A stretch of DNA of 41,426 bases from a virus, in the IMG/VR virus record IMGVR_UViG_3300028914_000024, positions 1 to 41,426 of that record; one strand, 5' to 3'. This document shows, one piece after another, positions 9,926 to 28,756 of the stretch. Every line of letters starts with the position of its first letter. The first letter of the stretch is position 1. A program made the translations under genes and the position numbers. The notes beneath the pieces were generated by a model. The model made no database searches. It was not told where the DNA came from and was given only the letters and a program-made list of their open reading frames with translations.

Positions 9926-10846
9926 TTATAAACTTGGTGTGCTTTGTGGTTTAAGACTTGCAAATGGAAATCTTGCACTTGTTTCGTTTTCAGCATTTAC
10001 AGGGTTTGGAATTTCCCAACCTAATCTCATAACAACACGAAGTGCTACCATATCGTCTTGTGCTAAGTTGTAAAGAATTGAACCATCGCTTGGGTCTTGG
10101 ATAACTGCTTCAGTTAATACTTTATAAGTTATATCTTGTCTTATAGAGTAAACAGCTTGTGAGAAATCACCAACAATTAATGTTGATTTAGTCTTATCCC
10201 AAACTCCATTGTCCATAAATTCTCTACGAATTGAACCTATTTCAGTTGTATTTAATGGTTGACCAGTTGTATCAAGCATCATTCTAAATTTACCTTTAAG
10301 TCCTGTTCCGCCTAAGATACCATTTACATTGTATCCGCTTTCTTCAACTTTTACCATAACATCGTTAATGTCACTATATAATCCGTTGCTAGTTTCATTA
10401 ACTTCAGCACCTACTGTTGTGATACTAGGAACTAGTCCAGCTCTCCAATCAGTTGGTTTGTCAACACCAAAGAACATAGCATTGTCTATTTTCTTAGCAA
10501 ATGCTTCTTCAACTCTTGGTCTTACTGTTGCCCAAATATCTATTGAGCTATCATTTAATAAGTTTTCTTTAATTGGAACGATTACTGCTAATTCAGCAAT
10601 GTTGATATATTTCTTATCCCAAGCCAATTTTGTAATGTTTTTTCTACCATTATTTGATGTTTCATCAACGAAATAAGCAACTGGTAGACTGTCTAATACT
10701 CTTAATTTCGTTTTGTCTGATGTTGCATTTGGTAGTCTTTTAAACATACTTAATGCTTTAGATTGTCTAATTGTTCCTTCAAATATTTCGTTAGCAACTT
10801 GAGTTTCAATTAGAGCATCTACATCAGTTCTTGCAATTCCTGCCAT
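9926..10846 (-). CDS. Major capsid protein
   Basis: 306 aa, directly after the scaffold gene with a strong RBS. Size and position fit HK97-fold capsid proteins of Firmicute siphophages. Confidence 0.8.
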   Translation of the reverse strand: MAGIARTDVDALIETQVANEIFEGTIRQSKALSMFKRLPNATSDKTKLRVLDSLPVAYFVDETSNNGRKNITKLAWDKKYINIAELAVIVPIKENLLNDSSIDIWATVRPRVEEAFAKKIDNAMFFGVDKPTDWRAGLVPSITTVGAEVNETSNGLYSDINDVMVKVEESGYNVNGILGGTGLKGKFRMMLDTTGQPLNTTEIGSIRREFMDNGVWDKTKSTLIVGDFSQAVYSIRQDITYKVLTEAVIQDPSDGSILYNLAQDDMVALRVVMRLGWEIPNPVNAENETSARFPFASLKPQSTPSL

Positions 10847-14733: not shown

Positions 14734-14807
14734 TGGCACAGGTTAGTGGATTTGAACCACTATCAATAGTTTTGGAGACTATTATGCTACCATTACACCA
14801 AACCCAT
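14734..14807 (-). tRNA. trnW: tRNA-Trp (anticodon CCA), CCA end encoded
   Basis: Hand-folded cloverleaf. Acceptor ATGGGTT/AACCTGT has two G-U pairs. D-loop AATGGTA, anticodon arm ATAGT-CTCCAAA-ACTAT, T arm AGTGG-TTCAAAT-CCACT. A1-U72 and G73 match bacterial Trp identity. Confidence 0.9.
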
Positions 14808-14817
14808 ATAAGCAAGA

Positions 14818-15999
14818 TTATTTCTTGCTTTTTTTCTTTTTAGTAACTTTGTTTAATTCTTCAGCAATTACTTTAACATCTTCTAGTTCTAGTTTGATTG
14901 GTTTTACCTCTTCAAGAATTTCAACCGCATTGTGTTCCTTTAAGTATTCAGCTCTTTCTTTTTCACATTCCCATTCACTTTTGTTTGCTACTCTTAGTTC
15001 TTTCCCCTCTACATCTTGAAAGTTAATTAATGCTCTTACTCTTACCATTTTTTCTTCTTCCTCCTTATAGTCTTTAATTATTTTTTCTTTATCTATCTTA
15101 CCAGTATAATCTAAAAACTTTAACCAATCTTCTAAAGAATGATTATCATACTCTTTGCATATTGGTATTGTTAATATCTTTTTTATATCAAAGTTCATAT
15201 CTAATGGTACAACATAACCATTTACACCATCTTTAATAAGTTCAGTACAACCACCTACATCTGTTACTATACAAGGCACTTTATACTGTAAGCTCTCTTG
15301 AACTGTGTAGGGCAAACCTTCACTATCACTAAGTAAAACAGTGTAATCGGCATCTGCTAAGTAATCCCATATGTCATATCTTTGTTTCCAAAAATGTACC
15401 TCTTCATAATCACATTTATACATCGTTGAATTTGTAAATATATTCCATTCAAATTTTATTCTTGCTTTCTTCATCATATCCATAAGTTTTAAGCATCTAT
15501 TCCAACCTTTGGCTGGGTCTAATCTAGTACAGCTAATTAGATGCAATACTTTATTTGTTTCCCTTTTTGGCAGTAATATATTTTTAATTGTTGTTGGATG
15601 GTCGTGCAATACCTCATCACTCATTTTACTAACAAATTCACCACAACCAACAATTTCTTTTATTCCCATATCGGCATATTGTTGATATAATAAGCCTTTA
15701 TCTAACAAATATTTATAATTAGCGTGTCGCATCTCTATCATTCTTTTAGCTTTTATATTTTTAGGTATTGTACCCCATACACTATTGCGGATGAAAATAT
15801 CACATTCATAAGTTTTGCCTTCTTCATACTTTTCCATCTTTGCAAGTTTAGACATTTTTCTAAGCCTTATATCGTCACCACCGCAATACAATATTGTTAT
15901 ATCAAAAAAATTTCTTAACCACCAACACCAATTATATGCCATTGTTTCCACTCCACCAATTTGGCAAAAATGTGATTGATAAAATATTATTTTTTTCAT
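14818..15999 (-). CDS. Glycosyltransferase, GT-B fold (GT4/group-1-like) with a C-terminal extension of about 85 aa
   Basis: Motif SDSEGLPYTVQESLQYKVPCIVTDVGGCTELIKDGVNGYVV is typical of group-1 GTs. Start overlaps the upstream stop (ATGA). Confidence 0.8.
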   Translation of the reverse strand: MKKIIFYQSHFCQIGGVETMAYNWCWWLRNFFDITILYCGGDDIRLRKMSKLAKMEKYEEGKTYECDIFIRNSVWGTIPKNIKAKRMIEMRHANYKYLLDKGLLYQQYADMGIKEIVGCGEFVSKMSDEVLHDHPTTIKNILLPKRETNKVLHLISCTRLDPAKGWNRCLKLMDMMKKARIKFEWNIFTNSTMYKCDYEEVHFWKQRYDIWDYLADADYTVLLSDSEGLPYTVQESLQYKVPCIVTDVGGCTELIKDGVNGYVVPLDMNFDIKKILTIPICKEYDNHSLEDWLKFLDYTGKIDKEKIIKDYKEEEEKMVRVRALINFQDVEGKELRVANKSEWECEKERAEYLKEHNAVEILEEVKPIKLELEDVKVIAEELNKVTKKKKSKK

Positions 16000-20581: not shown

Positions 20582-20815
20582 TCACAATAAAAGTAATGCT
20601 TTCCAAGTTTGCATAAATACATAATCCGCAAAAATATCTTTTAGCTTTCTTATTTCATAGCCGATAGTTCTTTGACTAACACCTATTTCCATAGCTATTT
20701 TTACTATGCTATCTTTATTTATTAACATATTAATTATTCTAATTTGTTCATCCGTAAGTGATACATTCCTTATAAAGTCGTCATATATTGCTTTGATTTT
20801 TAATTTCTCAACCAT
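20582..20815 (-). CDS. Small sigma-70 region-4 / LuxR-like HTH regulator
   Basis: LTDEQIRIINMLINKDSIVKIAMEIGVSQRTIGYEIRKLKD. ATG at 20815 follows GAGGTGG (the ORF track extends to 20833). Confidence 0.6.
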   Translation of the reverse strand: MVEKLKIKAIYDDFIRNVSLTDEQIRIINMLINKDSIVKIAMEIGVSQRTIGYEIRKLKDIFADYVFMQTWKALLLL

Positions 20816-20874
20816 TCCCCCACCTCGTTGCAATATATTACACTATATTTAATAAGATAGAATGCAAACTTTAG

Positions 20875-20916: not shown

Positions 20917-21138
20917 TTAAAAAAAATACTTGCTAATCTTGTTATAAATTTCTTGCTTTCTATTAGTAATTGTTCTCATAGAATACCCCGTTTTTATCAT
21001 AATGCCCTTTAATGGTTCACCTTGTAAACATAAATCCAGGATTGTTTTTTCTTTTCGGCTTTCTCTTAGGATGCCTTTTTTTATTATAAAGTCGTATGTT
21101 TCTTTAGGCATATCAAAGTAATAATGTGGTTTTTTCAT
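20917..21138 (-). CDS. Small sigma-70 region-4-like HTH regulator
   Basis: KEKTILDLCLQGEPLKGIMIKTGYSMRTITNRKQEIYNKI. Own consensus promoter upstream. Confidence 0.55.
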   Translation of the reverse strand: MKKPHYYFDMPKETYDFIIKKGILRESRKEKTILDLCLQGEPLKGIMIKTGYSMRTITNRKQEIYNKISKYFF

Positions 21139-22122: not shown

Positions 22123-22261
22123 ACTTCATCTCCTTATATGCTAGTACATAATCAAGTTGCTTTTGTGTCATATGAAATAGTCTATTAATATACATCGTTA
22201 AAGTATATTTTCTGCCATATTCTTTAAGCATCTTTTTTAGTTCTTTATTTTTTATTATCAT
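22082..22261 (-). CDS. Hypothetical small protein (59 aa, below ORF-track cutoff)
   Basis: Hand translation MIIKNKELKKMLKEYGRKYTLTMYINRLFHMTQKQLDYVLAYKEMKYEKENGRIKEHKM. AAGGGAG RBS. Confidence 0.4.
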   Translation of the reverse strand: MIIKNKELKKMLKEYGRKYTLTMYINRLFHMTQKQLDYVLAYKEMKYEKENGRIKEHKM

Positions 22262-22547
22262 CGTTGCACTCCCTTAAATCAACGCAACGCAAATCCCCAC
22301 ACCCACATTTTGGGCAATTACTTGTAATAGAATAACTTTTACCATCTTGCCATTCATAACCGCATTCCATACAAGTATAATAATACCTTTTTTCTATAAT
22401 AATTTTGTCATATTCAACACGAATATTTATTTCATCATCATCATCAATTTCAGCTTCTTGCACTATTCTTTTTGGTATATGTGCAGTATAACAATTAATT
22501 CTTTTTTCATTATTTGCTATATATATTTGTTTACTTAATTTTGGCAT
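22245..22547 (-). CDS. AbrB/SpoVT-like domain fused to a zinc ribbon
   Basis: IPKRIVQEAEI...INIRVEYDKIIIEK swapped-hairpin-like N-terminus. C-terminal CMECG...CPKCGC. Confidence 0.5.
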   Translation of the reverse strand: MPKLSKQIYIANNEKRINCYTAHIPKRIVQEAEIDDDDEINIRVEYDKIIIEKRYYYTCMECGYEWQDGKSYSITSNCPKCGCGDLRCVDLRECNDDNKK

Positions 22548-23059
22548 TTTTCTTTCTCCTTTTCTTTGACTTTGTAATATAATCTAGCACTCAGTATAGC
22601 AGTTTTAGTAATCATACCATCATTAGATAACAAACTTTTGTTTTTTATACAATTATACTCTGGTGTTGATACTGCCATTAAATTGTCAATGTCAAAGTTT
22701 GTTCTATCACCATCCAAAAATATAACCATTGTTCCTTTAGGCAATTTTACATTATGATATTGCTCGTAAATATGCCTTTGTTTGTATTCCCATTTGTTTG
22801 GTGTGACTTTAACCAATACCATATTGTCTGGCTTAACGTATTCAGTTCCAATTGGTATTCTATTGCCCATTGCTTTTGCTTTATTAGGGTTATAATCTTT
22901 ATATCTTATTTGTCTTTTTTGCAAGTATTCTCGTAACATTTCTTTTGTAATTTGATAGTTATATTTGTTTTTGGCAATATCTAGCAATTTGTCTATTGTA
23001 TTACTAGACCCTTTTTTATACATTTCTTTTTCAAATTCTTTTGAATACTTATTTCTCAT
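22535..23059 (-). CDS. Free-standing HNH homing endonuclease (HNH_3-like)
   Basis: KWEYKQRHIYEQYHNVKLPKGTMVIFLDGDRTNFDIDNLMAV matches the HNH_3 pattern (H...DGD..N...NL). Confidence 0.65.
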   Translation of the reverse strand: MRNKYSKEFEKEMYKKGSSNTIDKLLDIAKNKYNYQITKEMLREYLQKRQIRYKDYNPNKAKAMGNRIPIGTEYVKPDNMVLVKVTPNKWEYKQRHIYEQYHNVKLPKGTMVIFLDGDRTNFDIDNLMAVSTPEYNCIKNKSLLSNDGMITKTAILSARLYYKVKEKEKEKCQN

Positions 23060-23291
23060 TTACAACACCAAGCTCTAATGTTAATTTGTCTTTTTGTGTT
23101 TCGTATTTAGTTGCTACTTCAATAATTCTTAAACCAACATTTACACTTTTTAAAAATGTTACAGCACTACCTGATAAAGCATTTGCTCTTGCAATTTCTT
23201 CACTTTTATCAACGTGTGTGTTGTCTAAATTATCTAGTCTTTCCATTTGCCTCATTAACATTTGTTGCATTTTAATTAAATTATTATTCAT
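23049..23291 (-). CDS. Hypothetical helical protein
   Basis: 80-aa ORF coupled to neighbours. Confidence 0.55.
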   Translation of the reverse strand: MNNNLIKMQQMLMRQMERLDNLDNTHVDKSEEIARANALSGSAVTFLKSVNVGLRIIEVATKYETQKDKLTLELGVVNEK

Positions 23292-23479
23292 TATTTATTC
23301 ACCCCCTTTTTGGTGCATATGAACATTATATTTATTGGTATACACATAATACACGCTAAATATAATCTCCAGGTATTTAAGTTTTGTAATGTTTCTTTTT
23401 TAGTAAACAACATTATGCCAACCTCAATCAACATCAAAACCAATGCCCCTACCTTGTAACAATTTACTTTCTTTTTCAT
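23291..23479 (-). CDS. Small membrane protein (2 TM)
   Basis: VGALVLMLIEVGIMLF and LYLACIMCIPINIMFI. AAGGAGGT RBS. First gene after promoter 23504..23532. Confidence 0.6.
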   Translation of the reverse strand: MKKKVNCYKVGALVLMLIEVGIMLFTKKETLQNLNTWRLYLACIMCIPINIMFICTKKGVNK

Positions 23480-23503
23480 AATCTACCTCCTTGTTACAAT
23501 TAC

Positions 23504-23532
23504 ACTATAACATAGTTATATGACTATGTCAA
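23504..23532 (-). promoter_or_regulatory. Sigma-A-type promoter
   Basis: Minus strand TTGACA-17 nt-TATAGT, followed by GTAATTGT as in promoter 23881..23909. Confidence 0.75.
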
Positions 23533-23552
23533 TACTAAATTTGTTATTTTAC

Positions 23553-23585
23553 AAAAAAAAAGACACCAACCACGAATAGGTGTCT
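23553..23585 (-). terminator. Intrinsic terminator ending the candidate ncRNA
   Basis: Minus strand AGACACC-11 nt loop-GGUGUCU followed by U8. Confidence 0.8.
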
Positions 23586-23874
23586 TTCATAAAATAGATT
23601 AGGAAGGTGCTTTGTAAACACCATAGAATAGATGAAAAGCGTGTAGTATCATCTACTCTATGTTGCCTATAAAGGCAACTTTGTACATATGTGTGGTCTG
23701 TAAAGTGCTTTTATTTAGCACCATTAGAATAGATATAGAGAACCTACAGATAACCCCTTAACAGTTCTCGGCTCATTTTAGTCATTTTGGGGTTTTGCCA
23801 TTATATACCTATCCTAATGCTACCAAATAAGGTAGCCTCTTTGACATAACAAATGGATGCTTTGTTGTTAGAAC
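23553..23874 (-). ncRNA. Candidate structured non-coding RNA of about 320 nt (family not identified)
   Basis: Own consensus promoter and terminator. No RBS-led ORF. At least 7 helices, with G-U pairs that work only on the minus strand. Contains an internally duplicated 17-nt module. Confidence 0.6.
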
Positions 23875-23880
23875 AATTAC

Positions 23881-23909
23881 ATTATAGCATATAATTATTC
23901 TTTTTGCAA
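23881..23909 (-). promoter_or_regulatory. Sigma-A-type promoter driving the candidate ncRNA
   Basis: Minus strand TTGCAA-17 nt-TATAAT. Confidence 0.75.
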
Positions 23910-23914
23910 TATAG

Positions 23915-23937
23915 AAAAAGAACATATTTCTATGTTC
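23915..23937 (-). terminator. Intrinsic terminator of the packaging/head operon
   Basis: Minus strand GAACAUA-GAAA-UAUGUUC followed by U5. Confidence 0.6.
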
Positions 23938-24076
23938 AAAAACACACTCGCTTTTAGCATTATCACGTTAATAATGCCTTGTTTGATGAACGCTAGGAAC
24001 TCTTACAAGTTATCATCTTGTATTCTAACTCTTACCCAGCTAGGAGTTTCTCTGTGTTTTCTTAATTATAACATAA

Positions 24077-25336
24077 TTATTTTTTGATTGCAACCCTTTT
24101 ATAACCACTTACTCTTAATCTATCTTTTTTTTCTAATAAGCCACTTGCTTTTGATAGTTCTTTGTATTTATGATTTAGTATTGTTATCTTTTGTTGGCTT
24201 TCGCCTATAAGCATCTCATTATTACTTGCTCTTGCTAATATTTGAGTATCCTTTTGTTCTCGTATAGCTCTTTCTATTTGTCTTTGTAATTGAGTACCCT
24301 CATACATTGTATAATGTTTGCCCTCATAATCAAAGCCTTTATTGTTTCTATTTATTATTTCTTTTAGTTCCTCGTTTGAATATTCTGGCTTACTTATTCC
24401 TAAGACAATAGCAAATGTATAGTGATAACAATTATATTGGCTTATACTTCTTCTATCGTGTCCATCATAATTTGCATCAAACTCAACACCATCATAGCTG
24501 ACAGCTTTTTCATCACTTTGGAATTTTTCAAACTCACCTTTTTTAATTAATTTGCCATCCGCATCATATTGATTGGTGCTAAATTGTTTACCTTGTACAT
24601 CCTGGTGGTCAGGTGCAGGGTTTTCGTGTACTGTTATTTCAACACCATCCGCATCAAACTCTTTGCCTATTATTGTTTGTGTTTCATTGTGCAAAGTTCT
24701 TATAGCATCTTTCATATGCATTCTAACCGCACTATCAAGCCTCATTGTTCTTCCATTCTCATAAACAACCTTTAGACCCGTTCCCATTTGTTTTAACTGT
24801 CTAAACATTGCACTATCAAATGTTTCTTTACCTTGCCCTACATTTAATATTGCCTCGTCTAAAAGCTCGTTATATGCATCTTTTAAGCCTTTAAATGTGA
24901 CCTCTTTTGTCTTTTTATCTGCCATACCAAAGCCAATCATATCACTTCTTGCCATTTCTATGTATTTTTTTGCGGTGGCGGATGATATTGCGTCTATTTG
25001 ACTTTTCAATGCAAAATTTTGCTCGTATGGTATAAATTTTTTGCCTCTAAAGTCATAAAATTGCTTAGCAAACTCATAATCGTGCTTTGCAACCTCATCA
25101 AAAATTTTCTTAATATCTCTTACATTCAGCTTTGTTATTTCAGCAAGTTTTTTTATTATCTTGTCATAGTCACCACCATATTTTAGTATTTGCACTAATT
25201 CTTGAGCTTTGCTAGGTGTAAGAGTACCAAGTTTTTTGATACTCTTACCTATTTGCTCTAAAACATACTCGTTGCCTTGCTCTATTCTATTAACAAGCCT
25301 TTCAATTACTTTTTCAATAACCTCGTCAGATAACAT
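24077..25336 (-). CDS. Minor capsid / head morphogenesis protein (Phage_min_cap2 / SPP1 gp7-like)
   Basis: SISQYNCYHYTFAIVLGISKPEYS...GKHYTMYEGTQLQRQIERAIREQK is typical of this family. Confidence 0.7.
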   Translation of the reverse strand: MLSDEVIEKVIERLVNRIEQGNEYVLEQIGKSIKKLGTLTPSKAQELVQILKYGGDYDKIIKKLAEITKLNVRDIKKIFDEVAKHDYEFAKQFYDFRGKKFIPYEQNFALKSQIDAISSATAKKYIEMARSDMIGFGMADKKTKEVTFKGLKDAYNELLDEAILNVGQGKETFDSAMFRQLKQMGTGLKVVYENGRTMRLDSAVRMHMKDAIRTLHNETQTIIGKEFDADGVEITVHENPAPDHQDVQGKQFSTNQYDADGKLIKKGEFEKFQSDEKAVSYDGVEFDANYDGHDRRSISQYNCYHYTFAIVLGISKPEYSNEELKEIINRNNKGFDYEGKHYTMYEGTQLQRQIERAIREQKDTQILARASNNEMLIGESQQKITILNHKYKELSKASGLLEKKDRLRVSGYKRVAIKK

Positions 25337-26450: not shown

Positions 26451-27263
26451 CTAATTAAAATATTTTGCTAAGTCAACATTATAATTGTATGCCACTTCGT
26501 CAGCCGACAAATCTCTATTATATATTAAAAAGTTATGTATTGTTCCGTTAAATGTTCTATCACTTGGTGCATATTCTGGTGGATTTGCTTGTAAATAAGC
26601 ATTCCCAATTGTAAAATACATACTACTATTTAAACTACCGCTGAATGTATTTCTGTCATATACTTGTTGACCATCTATATATAAAATCATTCTTGATGTT
26701 GACATTATAACTAAAGTTAAATTATGTTGTGAGTTATCACTAGCCCAATCGGAGGTTGATATTGTTCTGCCTGAGCCACCTAACCAACCCGCACTTGAAC
26801 TTGAACCCTCGTATTGTACTAAGAAACCCGCACTGCCAATTCCGTGATTACCAAACAAGCCCATATAATTACCACCTGTTTTTACTGTGTATGTGCAACT
26901 TATCGTAACAGGCATATCGCTAAATAAATCGGTCATTTTTTTATCATTAACTGTTACGACACCATTATACGAATAATATAGTCTAAATTTTAGCCCGTTA
27001 GTTGTCCAACCTGAGTTATCACCAGTGCCATTAGAAAAGTTATACATTTTACCAACATTGTTATTTCCACTTAAGTCAGCCCACTCTGTTGCGGATGTAC
27101 TATAACCATTTCCTGTATTATCTATTCCACTATAATAAACTATTAATCCATCAGTAATATAATCATTGCCCTTTGGTTGCCATAATGTAACACCATTTCT
27201 TTCTATTTTTTTAACTGTTCCCTCAGGTATTGTAATACTTTTCACGTTAGAAAAATCTACCAT
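26451..27263 (-). CDS. LamG / concanavalin-A-like lectin domain protein
   Basis: FNGTIHNFLIYNRDLSADEVAYNY is the classic Laminin_G_3 C-terminal signature. Confidence 0.75.
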   Translation of the reverse strand: MVDFSNVKSITIPEGTVKKIERNGVTLWQPKGNDYITDGLIVYYSGIDNTGNGYSTSATEWADLSGNNNVGKMYNFSNGTGDNSGWTTNGLKFRLYYSYNGVVTVNDKKMTDLFSDMPVTISCTYTVKTGGNYMGLFGNHGIGSAGFLVQYEGSSSSAGWLGGSGRTISTSDWASDNSQHNLTLVIMSTSRMILYIDGQQVYDRNTFSGSLNSSMYFTIGNAYLQANPPEYAPSDRTFNGTIHNFLIYNRDLSADEVAYNYNVDLAKYFN

Positions 27264-28756
27264 AATACAACTTCCTTATCAACAGTAGTGTCATCATCCA
27301 ACGTAAATGTCCAAGTTTCGTGTGAAAAACTATGTTGACTTACCCATTCTGTGTCAAAATCACTATTACTAGCTTTTGCTAACACTTGACCCGTTGTTCC
27401 TGCACTTGGCAATCCATTGTTGCTATAATCATCAGTTATATTATAGAAAGTATCGGCATCCTTATTTTGTATTGCATTGTATTCGCTTAGTGTACCACTC
27501 CAAAACTTGTCTAAATTTGTTGTTTTTACATCTTTAACGCCAGTCATAAATTGAGTTTTGTTATACTCTATTTTTTGAAATGTTGTTACGCCTGTTGATG
27601 TAAATACATTGTTTTCCCACGTTCCATTTATTCTAAATGTAACTAAATATAGCGTATTACCATTAAAACTATATCCATCAAAAAGATACATTCTATCTTG
27701 ATTTGTTAATGGACTTTCATTACTCATAATAAATGTGTAATTGTAATTTGTTTTTAATAATACAATAGCATTTTTTATTTGTTTACCATAATAATAGTTT
27801 ATTAAATCAGTTGCACTTTCTTTTATTGCGTCTGTGGTATAATTTTCGTTATTATATGAAAATGTTGTTGGTATTTCAAATCTATATACTTGGTGTTGGT
27901 CTGTATCTACATATTGTTTTGTTGCATAATTACTTAAATCACCACCAACTGCACTTATAACATTATTTTCTATTGTTATGTTTTCTCCTGCTGTATATTG
28001 AACGTAACCATCTCTACCATCAGTTCCGTTAGTACCATTGATACCATCACTAACAATTGCGGTTGTGGTTCCGTTTTTATCGGTGATAGTTATTGTTGAT
28101 GTACTGCCACTTTTAGTTACTGTTGCAATTGGGCTTACCCCATCAACTCCGTCAATACCATTTCTTCCGTCAACTCCGTCCTTCCCGTCAACTCCATCTC
28201 TTCCGTCTCTTCCGTTTGTTCCATTCGTTCCATCTAAAACTTGTACCTCTTTTGATGTTCCACTTTTGTCCGTAATTGTAATAGTCGTTGTTGTTCCAAC
28301 TTTATTTGCATCTATATCTAAATTATTGACCTCATTTAAAGCTGTATCTATGTCATCTAATTTGCCATTAACCTCGTTTAAACCTTCTTGTAATTGCAAT
28401 TCGTATTGTTCTAATTCGCTTGGTGTTATTGGTTGACTATTTTCGGCATCTTTTAATGAACCTTCTAGTGTTGTAAAGTAACCAGGTTTAGGGTTGTATC
28501 TTTGAGTTGAATTAAATGCAACTACACCTAATTCAATTTCACCAGGTTCGGTTAATACTTCACTAGGTATTTCACATTGATTATTTATTATGATTTGTTT
28601 GTATGTGTCTCCTTTTAAAGTAAAATATGCCTCTTTTGTAAATGTTGCATCAAAGTCATCACTAAATTCAAAATCAACAGTTGTTACATTTATTTCTTGC
28701 TCATTTACTGGTGTATTAATTACTTGTATTGTATGCGGTTTAACTATTACTTTCAT
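27257..28756 (-). CDS. BppU-like fibre protein with collagen-like Gly-X-Y repeats
   Basis: N-terminal Ig-like BppU-type region, GTNGTNGRDGRDGVDGKDGVDGRNGIDGVDGVS collagen run, and a second GINGTNGTDGRDG run. Confidence 0.75.
   Translation of the reverse strand: MKVIVKPHTIQVINTPVNEQEINVTTVDFEFSDDFDATFTKEAYFTLKGDTYKQIIINNQCEIPSEVLTEPGEIELGVVAFNSTQRYNPKPGYFTTLEGSLKDAENSQPITPSELEQYELQLQEGLNEVNGKLDDIDTALNEVNNLDIDANKVGTTTTITITDKSGTSKEVQVLDGTNGTNGRDGRDGVDGKDGVDGRNGIDGVDGVSPIATVTKSGSTSTITITDKNGTTTAIVSDGINGTNGTDGRDGYVQYTAGENITIENNVISAVGGDLSNYATKQYVDTDQHQVYRFEIPTTFSYNNENYTTDAIKESATDLINYYYGKQIKNAIVLLKTNYNYTFIMSNESPLTNQDRMYLFDGYSFNGNTLYLVTFRINGTWENNVFTSTGVTTFQKIEYNKTQFMTGVKDVKTTNLDKFWSGTLSEYNAIQNKDADTFYNITDDYSNNGLPSAGTTGQVLAKASNSDFDTEWVSQHSFSHETWTFTLDDDTTVDKEVVLW
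28133..28231 (-). repeat. Collagen-like Gly-X-Y run (11 triplets) within 27257..28756
   Basis: gga-nnn-nnn periodicity read on the minus strand. It generates the mirror-image Pro/Ser-rich plus-strand ORF 28038..28436. Confidence 0.9.

Follow-up and report, generated by a model that had tools for sequence, protein, structure and literature searches.

A stand-alone phage RNA gene with two tandem copies of a conserved three-helix module

Locus and transcription unit

The window, by which we mean the whole stretch of DNA analysed, is the IMG/VR record IMGVR_UViG_3300028914_000024 with a length of 41,426 nt. From 23480 to 24076 no ORF of at least 60 aa overlaps on either strand, as the initial annotation had stated, and this is the longest such gap separating minus-strand genes. 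A stand-alone non-coding RNA gene lies here on the minus strand (23909..23553), running from promoter to terminator with a predicted transcript of ~320 nt. Its promoter is of the sigma-A type, TTGCAA-17-(TG)CTATAAT (23881..23909, minus strand; 10/12 with TG extension), and we infer a transcription start near 23874. The intrinsic terminator, as read from the sequence, consists of AGACACC, an 11-nt loop, GGUGUCU and U9 (23553..23585, minus strand). A second terminator hairpin read in the same way, GAACAUA/UAUGUUC (GAACAUAGAAAUAUGUUC) with U5, is located upstream of the gene (23915..23937, minus strand). Neither hairpin was flagged by the terminator scan tool; the loop of the first measures 11 nt, and the second contains just 2 G-C pairs. 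At least 12 other motif loci carry the upstream hairpin almost unchanged, with 95-100% identity over stretches of 22-28 nt.

The next genes have their own promoter, TTGACA-17-(TG)TTATAGT (23504..23532, minus strand; 11/12 with TG extension). This separate promoter at 23532..23504 marks the RNA unit as insulated from the genes that follow it. Both promoters and both terminator hairpins had been proposed in the initial annotation and are indeed present. A third promoter (24065..24093, minus strand; 10/12 with TG), absent from that list, starts a neighbouring small unit (23915..24093, minus strand) with an RNA of ~130 nt that ends at the 23937..23915 terminator and has a fold z-score of -2.4. Promoter-like matches are not enriched in the region (13 vs 13.7 expected). 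The weight of the promoters is thus given by their position and their recurrence in homologues and not by an enrichment of matches as such.

The minus-strand fold of 23875..23553 has an MFE of -97.3 kcal/mol (z = -5.9), and none of 100 shuffles folds as well; the z-score of the plus strand is -4.4. All ORFs within the transcript are of 38 aa or less. The layout of the unit and the z-score support the earlier proposal of a discrete, non-coding and highly structured minus-strand RNA of ~320 nt, which is predicted here from the sequence.

The conserved module

The window RNA is built from two tandem copies of one conserved module. In each copy, hairpin H1 is directly abutted by helix P2 and P2 is directly abutted by hairpin H3, with no linkers in between. 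P2 has 13-15 bp and is conserved in sequence, with one conserved G.U pair and a tip of any length. On the minus strand, a 5' leader (23837..23875) precedes the first unit and contains a block, CCAUUUGUUAUGUCAAAGAG (23856..23837), which nhmmer and blastn find in the close relatives L014, L034 and L210. H1 of unit 1, a family helix, is formed by GCUACC and GGUAGC around the loop UUAUUU (23819..23836). The 5' strand of P2, AUUAGGAUAGGUAUA (23804..23818), forms 15 of 15 pairs, two of them G.U, with the 3' strand UAUAUCUAUUCUAAU (23723..23737). This helix was overlooked in the initial annotation; since copy 1 pairs 23818..23804 with 23737..23723, the RNA consists of two tandem units. Between the two strands lies a variable apical insert of 66 nt (23738..23803), which matches unit 1 of the L248 array at 97% identity and holds an AACCCC/GGGGUU helix together with UGUAGGUUC. 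Set beside T-arm-bearing units and read by eye, UGUAGGUUC looks like a T-arm remnant. H3 of unit 1 consists of GGUGCU, the loop AAAUAAA and AGCACU (23704..23722), and its loop is complementary to the H1 loop over 6 nt.

Unit 2 follows on the same strand. Its H1, GUUGCC and GGCAAC around UUUAUA (23662..23679), differs from the consensus GCUACC/GGUAGC by changes that are compensated. Its P2 (23623..23661) pairs AUAGAGUAGAUGA with UCAUCUAUUCUAU across a 13-nt loop in 13 bp including one G.U, and its H3, also a family helix, is formed by GGUGUU, the loop UACAA and AGCACC (23606..23622). No trans target was seen in the phage, in that neither conserved strand nor its complement has a second site elsewhere in the window at up to 3 mismatches, and the type-2 sister unit is absent from the window.

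Covariance model R1 scores 57.7 bits on unit 1 (23846..23701, E = 8e-8) and 71.3 bits on unit 2 (23689..23601, E = 2e-10); both units are among the 29 sequences used to build R1, so these scores are partly by construction. Independent support is given by units that R1 recovers beyond its seed set and by the covariation over 88 units described below. The window contains the elements of our working definition, namely H1, P2 with its G.U and AGAUAUA/UAUAUCU-type distal pairs, H3, complementary loops and a match to R1. The plus strand reaches only 30.7 bits for unit 1 and 48.3 bits for unit 2, so that the minus strand is 23-27 bits higher. This backs the earlier argument from G.U pairs for a minus-strand RNA.

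Seven helices had been listed in the initial annotation. Five of them are conserved in the family, namely both hairpins of copy 1 and, in copy 2, both hairpins together with P2. Of the other two, AACCCC/GGGGUU falls within the variable insert, and UCUGUA/UACAGA runs across the P2 that copy 1 really forms and lacks support. The duplicated module is real and corresponds to the P2 3' strand plus the H3 5' strand of two paralogous units. The bistability suggested on its basis, in which one 5' segment would serve two 3' partners, is not supported, as a separate conserved 5' strand is present for each of the 3' copies.

In total, 96 distinct units were collected from IMG/VR phages, rumen and gut metagenomes and phage-looking contigs of Bacillota MAGs. 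They measure 78-175 nt with a core of ~70 nt and occur in arrays of 1-4 units. Compensatory changes among homologues, which the initial annotation had named as the check on its helices, are found in the conserved ones: over 88 units, 95% of the cells are paired, and double-sided changes are seen at 25 of the 27 pairs. The number of double-sided changes in these units is 162 cells, compared with 29.5 in shuffles, and none of 500 shuffles reaches it. H1 is 96.8% paired across the family with all six pairs changing on both sides, and P2 alone is 97.6% paired in 29 units. The partner strands of H1 and H3 were located by best pairing, and a control was run to gauge the resulting bias. Perfect 6/6 stems are found for H1 in 79 and for H3 in 62 of 90 units. 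The control gives only 5/90 and 1/90, thus these stems are not an artefact of the search. The modelled strand beats the opposite strand by ~15-37 bits across the family searches. All conserved nucleotides reside in helices or in the two complementary loops. A coding reading of the locus was rejected on the short ORFs and on the nature of the conservation, which is paired covariation with compensating 1-nt indels in P2.

The transcriptional context recurs as well. Of 72 homologous arrays, 32 (44%) have a promoter of at least 10/12 in the preceding 200 nt, compared with 14.8% of background windows, and terminator-like sites follow 21 of 73 arrays (29%) and 4.1% of background windows. Stand-alone units with their own promoter and terminator, whose transcript has no other content, are present in the window and at many loci.

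The loops of H1 and H3 are complementary within units beyond expectation (4.78 vs 4.26 ± 0.08 permuted; reached in 0 of 10000 permutations). Within arrays, intra-unit complementarity is 4.43 compared with 3.95 between neighbours (11 unit pairs). Throughout the family an alternative fold is available, in which the 3' half and loop of H1 pair with the 5' half and loop of H3 and P2 is lengthened into a rod of ~27 bp. In 65 units the two forms are nearly iso-energetic (-12.1 vs -13.6 kcal/mol), with the rod favoured in 39. Five of the six extra rod pairs are pairable at 93-100%, beside a conserved G.G mismatch. The rod extension has almost no double-sided changes, so the rod may be a by-product of wobble-rich hairpin sequences. 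The MFE structure of the window has unit 1 as the rod and unit 2 in the three-helix form.

Comparison with known RNAs and neighbours

No Rfam 15 family matches the RNA when the whole window is searched at the gathering threshold or the region 23400..24150 at E up to 10, and the same is true for nine other motif loci at E up to 1. Permissive searches returned chance miRNA, snoRNA and sRNA matches only, or nothing. In particular, 6S RNA, tmRNA, group I/II introns and known self-cleaving ribozymes are without a match in the window region at E up to 10. ROOL (RF03087, at least 99.1 bits) is absent from the window at the gathering threshold and from 23400..24150 at E up to 10, and no GOLLD match is found, the transcript having ~320 nt vs >800 nt for GOLLD. 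ROOL, GOLLD, 6S, tmRNA and introns had all been put forward for checking in the initial annotation, and none of them matches. Blastn of the region against GenBank phages gave no match, and a literature text search with four 11-12-nt fragments of the conserved core returned unrelated papers only. The companion motif goes unmentioned in the 224-motif paper and in the ROOL/GOLLD cryo-EM paper (PMC12286853). More than 10,000 candidate structured RNAs have been predicted from IMG/VR (PMC10690425), and the module may already stand, unnamed, among them. Relative to the families catalogued in Rfam 15, the module is a new RNA family.

Although the module is not a ROOL or GOLLD RNA, the earlier idea of a relation to them survives as an association: ROOL is found directly beside units in six other loci (L204, L138, L237, L292, L309 and L311; L224, with an identical ROOL alignment, is counted together with L138). 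The Rfam search that finds no ROOL in the window detects it at 155-177 bits in L138, L204 and L266. Units and the tRNAs or ROOL of their operons are at most 66 nt apart, and in the closest case (a gap of -5) the two called matches overlap by 5 nt; units beside ROOL are probably co-transcribed with it. Like ROOL and GOLLD, the module is encoded by phages or prophages from rumen, gut and Lactobacillales-type hosts and occurs near tRNA islands; the variable linker of GOLLD sometimes carries a tRNA. They also share covarying loop-loop contacts, which ROOL and GOLLD use for assembly (PMC12286853). However, the module core has ~70 nt instead of 580 to >800 nt and comes as tandem arrays of diverged units. 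Its three simple helices contrast with the ornate multi-junction folds of ROOL (~580 nt, several multistem junctions and pseudoknots) and GOLLD (conserved 3' domain).

Among loci with any tRNA, the module is located within 100 nt of tRNA genes and on the same strand in 4 of 7. In two loci a tRNA sits at the tip of P2: it is called inside P2 in L098 (ARAGORN; Rfam tRNA 41.4 bits) and likewise in L308. T-arm-like hairpins are seen in the inserts of 7 of 90 units, in four of them 0-1 nt before the P2 3' strand. Where a relative carries a tRNA or T-arm at the tip, the acceptor stem is predicted to be formed by the distal 7 bp of P2 (AGAUAUA/UAUAUCU), and the basal 7 bp (AUUGAGU/AUUCAAU) to pair the 5' leader with the 3' trailer. 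With a distal acceptor stem and basal leader:trailer pairing, the module therefore resembles a clamped pre-tRNA stalk. Units resemble tRNA precursors in their location within or next to phage tRNA clusters of the same orientation, whereas their acceptor-like helix is extended by 7 bp of leader:trailer pairing and clamped by two hairpins. The T4 tRNA cluster also holds small stable non-tRNA RNAs (species 1 and 2). ARAGORN at default settings calls a tRNA in just one unit out of 90, and a cloverleaf is missing from most inserts. Hidden tRNAs in most inserts were considered and rejected, as controls yield as many calls as real units at 70% of the ARAGORN threshold. The window units themselves give no tRNA (RF00005) or tRNA-like match of the kind seen inside P2 of L098 and L308, and their apparent tRNA likeness draws on P2 sequence homology and the 9-nt remnant. 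The sole tRNA in the window is a tRNA-Trp (14734..14807; ARAGORN, Rfam).

The pRNA of phage phi29 is a small phage RNA with two mutually complementary covarying loops that forms head-to-tail rings; its three-way junction is closed by a helix made of its own 5' and 3' ends, and it goes with the gp16 motor, a packaging ATPase. The module resembles it in its complementary loops and, in the window family, in its place among head and packaging genes. It differs in being open between H1 and H3 without a closing helix, in its varying location among phages, and in that the window phage has a Terminase_6N/Terminase_3 large terminase and an SPP1-type portal. Inspection of the flanks by eye revealed no conserved helix that would bring the two ends of a unit together in the manner of a tRNA acceptor; with neither this helix nor an Rfam match, the module is not a phi29 pRNA. 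It shares with type III toxin-antitoxin loci of the ToxI kind the order of promoter, tandem structured RNA repeats and terminator on a phage. Its units are diverged, including the two of the window, and 78-175 nt long, however, while ToxI repeats are near-identical, 34-45 nt long and followed by a gene for an endoribonuclease toxin, and the loci have no shared downstream gene family or conserved toxin gene. In a riboswitch or attenuator, the 3' part of an aptamer competes with a neighbouring terminator to control the genes behind it. No conserved unpaired nucleotides that could form a ligand pocket are seen here. A cis-acting antitermination element or riboswitch was rejected because separate promoters serve the downstream genes and because the distance from the module to the terminator differs among loci (3 to >60 nt). 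Neighbour clustering reveals no obligatory protein partner; the top family, a minor capsid protein, is present in 15 of 73 loci. In the window, the flanking minor capsid protein has GenBank phage relatives of at most 30% identity.

Few bacterial and phage RNAs are as striking as ROOL and GOLLD, for which closeness to phage tRNA islands is the sole contextual clue known so far. The module is a third RNA of this neighbourhood, much smaller and far simpler. Its settings vary: it is fused to a tRNA, lies within 5 nt of or overlaps the called end of ROOL, or, as in the window, stands alone under a strong host-type promoter. With a ~70-nt core and clear covariation it is easy to synthesise, probe, mutate and pull down, and therefore provides a tractable handle on the tRNA-island RNA system. 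For phage genome annotation it is a new family that fills gaps now left blank.

Possible roles of the RNA

Our best explanation, held tentatively and with somewhat less than even confidence, is a stand-alone RNA gene whose product acts as a free pre-tRNA-like decoy or particle. It draws on the transcription unit, the conserved structure, the lack of a protein partner nearby, the tRNA and ROOL links and the mobility of the cassette. The module would act in trans as a stable and abundant RNA of the phage tRNA-island set, which comprises tRNAs, ROOL and the module. Its favoured role would be that of a multivalent decoy or competitor. The target would be a conserved factor of the host with tRNAs or tRNA precursors as its substrates, either a processing nuclease or a tRNA-directed defence nuclease. 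Tandem copies would raise its valency. Against the decoy, T-arm or tRNA-like inserts are confined to a minority of units, and the tRNA adjacency is seen in few loci. Self-assembly or switching would account at least equally well for the loop complementarity and the rod fold.

Self-assembly is the main rival, although we consider it unlikely. Units or molecules would be joined head to tail by pairing of the H1 loop of one with the H3 loop of the next, giving rings or chains in analogy to the interlocking loops of phi29 pRNA and the kissing loops of ROOL and GOLLD, and the module might work together with ROOL. The covarying loop-loop complementarity within units and the existence of tandem arrays of 2-4 units are consistent with this. 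So is the geometry, from which an intramolecular kiss of 5-6 bp would be strained, as H1 and H3 abut P2 without linker. In addition, units adjoin and are probably co-transcribed with ROOL, which forms cages via intermolecular kissing loops (PMC12286853). The loops, however, are entirely A/U and would make a weak contact, the complementarity within units is barely above that between neighbours in the 11 pairs compared, and the intramolecular rod accounts for the same loop complementarity. That rod could also matter in cis. Conserved double-stranded elements are found at gene boundaries in polycistronic transcripts, e.g. rRNA leader:trailer stalks and the phage RNase III sites (T7 R sites, SP82 sites). 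The module helix is similarly formed by sequences on either side of a stable RNA and reaches ~27 bp in the rod form. P2 or the rod might thus be a processing or stability stalk that is cut by a host double-strand nuclease, which would free or stabilise the adjacent tRNAs, ROOL or insert, stand-alone copies, including that of the window, being decayed or accessory. The tRNAs embedded in P2 with leader and trailer forming its basal part, the short distances to tRNAs and ROOL in their operons, and the conserved rod pairing potential, which would give a long dsRNA substrate, argue for such a stalk. We nevertheless regard it as distinctly improbable: in the window and at many other loci the unit is transcribed by itself, from a dedicated promoter to a dedicated terminator, with no further RNA to be released, most inserts are not tRNAs, and the flanking hairpins H1 and H3 show truly compensatory changes, which are needless for a plain stalk.

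The near-equal energies of the two forms in 65 units, the high pairability of the extra rod pairs and the mixed MFE structure of the window would also suit a switch or sensor, in which the unit toggles between three-helix form and rod on a ligand, a protein or temperature. This seems very unlikely to us, as the rod extension has almost no double-sided changes, no conserved unpaired nucleotides are available for a pocket, and an expression platform is lacking, given the variable terminator distance and the downstream genes' own promoters. We also consider a combination in which the module represents a novel type of small, modular RNA of phages, sharing one functional system with tRNA islands and ROOL cages. 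As a clamped pre-tRNA-like stalk, it would toggle between rod and three-helix form and link head to tail through its loops. As a whole this is possible, though doubtful. If true, it could lead to RNA-only assemblies or tRNA-like cargo docked to ROOL, or, as an alternative, an RNA decoy that disarms tRNA-directed host defence nucleases.

A DNA-level element, with inverted repeats serving recombination, mobility or packaging and an incidental RNA structure, is highly improbable. The model scores one strand far above the other, on which the G.U pairs would be A-C, the loops covary with each other, promoters and terminators flank the units, and units are embedded in tRNA and ROOL operons. What speaks for it is the mobility of the cassette, which occupies differing sites in related phages and is more alike than its surroundings: a phage with genes of ~80% identity carries, at another position in its genome, a unit that matches unit 1 at 91-97%. 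A further point in its favour is the placement of units at module boundaries. Close to the cassette, homing-type HNH genes are seen in the window as well as in L205 and L110; overall, HNH genes are only occasional neighbours.

A discrete two-unit RNA gene

The window, ~41 kb long, is phage-like, and its genes all lie on the minus strand. The large terminase gene is followed by an SPP1-type portal gene and a Phage_min_cap2 minor capsid gene (25336..24077). After this comes a stretch of 597 nt, which is the longest gap without an ORF of ≥60 aa on either strand, as the initial annotation had stated, and then small genes, an HNH_3 endonuclease among them. A scan of the region recovers three extended −10 promoters on the minus strand (24093..24065, 23909..23881, and 23532..23504), the second being the promoter earlier assigned to the RNA. 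Promoter-like matches count here only by position and recurrence, because the region as a whole is not enriched in them (13 vs 13.7 expected). Both terminator hairpins described before are present in the sequence. The RNA (23875-23553, 323 nt) folds with −97.3 kcal/mol (z = −5.9), equalled by none of 100 shuffles; the opposite strand has z = −4.4. The terminator is followed by a new promoter in the window and, as read from their sequences, in two other loci (L008 and L051); the RNA is thus an insulated gene rather than a leader.

Among 15 IMG/VR relatives of the minor capsid gene the downstream region is variable, and parts of the RNA recur in a few of them. Pattern scans seeded from these parts, followed by reading of the matches, lead to one repeated module. 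It begins with the H1 hairpin (consensus GCUACC-UUUAUA-GGUAGC), directly abutted by the 5' strand of the P2 helix, AUU(A)GAGUAGAUAUA. An insert of unrestricted length leads to the P2 3' strand, UAUAUCUAUUC(U)AAU, which the H3 hairpin (GGUGCU-UAUAAA-AGCACU) abuts directly. The window RNA is two units of this module, both on the minus strand. In unit 1, H1 (23836..23819) is followed by the P2 5' strand (23818..23804), an insert of 66 nt, the P2 3' strand (23737..23723) and H3 (23722..23704). Unit 2 has H1 at 23679..23662, P2 strands at 23661..23649 and 23635..23623 around a loop of 13 nt, and H3 at 23622..23606.

The duplicated module read initially, AUCUAUUCUA(A)UGGUG(C/U)U, is a real repeat and represents the P2 3' strand plus the H3 5' strand of both units. 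The proposed bistability, with one 5' segment serving two 3' copies, falls: unit 1 has its own, previously missed P2 5' strand, so the supposed choice vanishes. Five of the seven helices listed at that time are helices of the family; UCUGUA/UACAGA crosses P2 of unit 1 and is unsupported, and AACCCC/GGGGUU lies within the variable insert. The finding itself is real and richer than proposed, a discrete RNA gene of two-unit anatomy.

A second small promoter-to-terminator unit (24093..23915, minus strand) lies immediately upstream. Its promoter overlaps the end of the minor capsid gene, and its RNA of ~130-150 nt has mild structure only (z = −2.4). The terminator hairpin closing it, GAACAUAGAAAUAUGUUC followed by U5, is 95-100% identical in at least 12 other loci carrying the module, in several of which it stands directly downstream of the units.

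A large covarying family absent from Rfam 15

A covariance model of the module, R1, was built on 29 trimmed units and searched against all fetched loci. The two window units, both seeds of R1, score 71.3 bits (E = 2e-10) and 57.7 bits (E = 8e-8), and R1 finds no further match over the window. The modelled strand beats the opposite strand every time, by ~15-37 bits. In total, 96 distinct unit sequences (92 clusters at 90% identity) were collected, from phage contigs of IMG/VR, from metagenomes of rumen and gut, and from six Bacillota MAG contigs of gut or rumen origin that carry phage genes.

Compensatory changes in homologues, a check named in the initial annotation, are present. Over 88 normalised cores, 95.0% of cells hold standard pairs and double-sided changes occur at 25 of 27 pairs. 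The double-change cells number 162 vs 29.5 in shuffles, a count reached by none of 500, and pairing falls to 31-48% when the partners are slid. P2 alone, whose partner strand was not chosen, is 97.6% paired on 29 units. Because best pairing had served to place the partner strands of H1 and H3, perfect 6/6 stems were also counted in a control in which the anchored strand was reversed; they are found for H1 and H3 in 79/90 and 62/90 units, compared with 5/90 and 1/90 in the control. One P2 position is G·U in 67 of 88 units, and elsewhere mostly the neighbouring pair is G·U instead.

At gathering score, Rfam 15 matches only the tRNA-Trp in the window, and the RNA region has no family match at E up to 10. 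No similar DNA is found in GenBank phages. Membership in ROOL or GOLLD, raised earlier as one possibility, is not borne out; the module is a new RNA class, although clearly of their genomic neighbourhood, and forms a large conserved family with strong covariation, strand specificity and arrays. The csRNAs predicted from IMG/VR (PMC10690425) may already include it without a name.

The 75 arrays of R1-detected units hold one unit in 60 cases, two in 13 and four in 2, with R1 missing units with very long inserts (e.g. in L237) and many units of a sister variant, type-2. Promoters of ≥10/12 lie within 200 nt upstream of 32/72 arrays (14.8% of background windows), and terminator-like sites downstream of 21/73 (4.1% of background windows). 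No neighbouring protein family is obligatory; even the most frequent one, the minor capsid protein, is present in only 15/73 loci. In another group of loci the module has a phrog_36 regulator on one side and, on the other, a small protein, probably the small terminase, that precedes the large terminase gene. In L248, a phage of the same family with ~80% identical terminase and portal, the first unit of an array of four matches unit 1 of the window at 91-97% identity. That array is located upstream of the terminase, immediately past three tRNA genes, and this near-identical unit at a different site indicates that the cassette moves between sites. The type-2 unit (H1 CUAUC/GGUAG; P2 GUACUGAUGAUAUA/UAUAUCAUUGGUAU with three G·U pairs; H3 GUGCC/AGCAC) follows type-1 units, the form found in the window, in 24 of 316 loci, for example L248 (1669..2790), L209 (6660), L204 (4903..4799) and L098 (2770..2700), and is absent from the window.

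ROOL, tRNA genes and possible function

The module is linked to ROOL and to tRNA genes. Downstream of two units each, Rfam ROOL (RF03087) lies at a distance of 5 nt in L204 (5034..4203) and of 38 nt in L138 (2224..3246); in L266 it is 1.1 kb away. An nhmmer profile of these ROOLs finds further ones ~20 nt past a unit in L237 (6560..5726), immediately after a unit in L292, 66 nt ahead of a unit in L309, and overlapping the called start of the unit by 5 nt in L311; it has no match in loci fetched by chance pattern match (~185, estimated). In L204, L138, L237, L292, L309 and L311 ROOL is on the same strand as the units, and ROOL and adjoining units are probably a single transcript. ROOL and GOLLD are phage RNAs without assigned function near tRNA islands, the GOLLD linker holds tRNAs in some cases, and both cages are held by kissing loops (PMC12286853). 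No companion motif like the module is described in the structured-RNA and ROOL/GOLLD literature examined, that paper included.

ARAGORN calls a tRNA gene in only 7 of the 73 motif loci first scanned, and in 4 of the 7 the module is within 100 nt of a same-strand tRNA, among them L266, where it lies inside a 22-tRNA island. A tRNA is called within the unit itself in L098 (2963..2826) and L308 (8903..9056). The former reaches 41.4 bits with Rfam tRNA; its acceptor stem is the distal 7 bp of P2, and the basal 7 bp are the tRNA 5' leader paired with the 3' trailer. The acceptor stem in L308 likewise comes from distal P2. The anticodon loop in L098 looks non-canonical, so this may be a pseudo-tRNA. 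The insert contains a T-arm-like hairpin in 7/90 units, in four of them 0-1 nt ahead of the P2 3' strand, and UGUAGGUUC in window unit 1, read by eye, could be a T-arm remnant. The median insert is 54 nt; a tRNA body has ~58 nt. Most inserts have no tRNA likeness by ARAGORN, relaxed thresholds included.

In addition, the loops of H1 and H3 complement each other (UUUAUA with UAUAAA) and co-vary, as in UUAUUU/AAAUAAA of window unit 1, UUUAAU/AUUAAA and CUUUCAAG/UUUGA. Complementarity within the own unit averages 4.78 vs 4.26 ± 0.08, attained by none of 10000 permutations, and is compatible with loops that kiss. Since neither hairpin has a linker to P2, we infer strain in a full intramolecular kiss and regard contacts from one unit or molecule to another as plausible. 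The own-unit preference is weak within arrays (4.43 vs 3.95). Self-assembly through these loops, possibly jointly with ROOL, is the main rival to the explanation that we prefer, and we consider it rather unlikely.

The preferred explanation, offered tentatively and carried mostly by its part on identity, is that the module RNA would be free, abundant and pre-tRNA-like, and would serve as a multivalent decoy or competitor for a conserved host factor processing or attacking tRNAs. A cis-acting processing stalk is a weaker candidate; units do adjoin tRNA genes and ROOL, and the window RNA is an insulated gene. The module can also be read with the 3' half and loop of H1 paired to the 5' half and loop of H3, by which P2 is lengthened to a rod of ~27 bp with a conserved G·G mismatch. 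Of the six pairs added in this way, five are 93-100% pairable, with few double changes, and the three-helix and rod forms differ little in energy (−12.1 vs −13.6 kcal/mol, 65 units). The MFE of the window RNA has unit 1 as rod and unit 2 in the three-helix form. A switch between the two forms appears improbable as the function, and a DNA-level element, set beside the strand specificity, highly improbable.

Neighbouring genes of the window

Directly past the RNA terminator, a 62-aa peptide (23479..23291; all genes here on the minus strand) has its own near-consensus promoter (23532..23504) and, by eye, two hydrophobic segments. It has no family match; possible identities are a small membrane toxin, a holin-like protein and an exclusion protein. 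The variable island of the RNA also holds the HNH_3 endonuclease (23059..22535, 174 aa) and an AbrB/MazE-like protein with a zinc ribbon (22547..22245, 100 aa). HNH or NUMOD-type genes adjoin motif units in L205 and L110 too.

A protein with collagen repeats and a tail-tip domain (28756..27257) is encoded between the portal and minor capsid genes. The morphogenesis module is oddly split, as the gene for the HK97-type major capsid protein (10846..9926) lies ~13 kb beyond this region. A lone tRNA-Trp(CCA) gene (14807..14734) stands beside a group-1 glycosyltransferase gene (15999..14818), with no motif unit near it. Downstream of the island, two proteins of 73-83 aa (21138..20917 and 20833..20582), conserved at this place in relatives, have ends resembling, by eye, the helix-turn-helix of sigma region 4 or LuxR, and one of them has a weak PHROG match to an RNA polymerase sigma factor.
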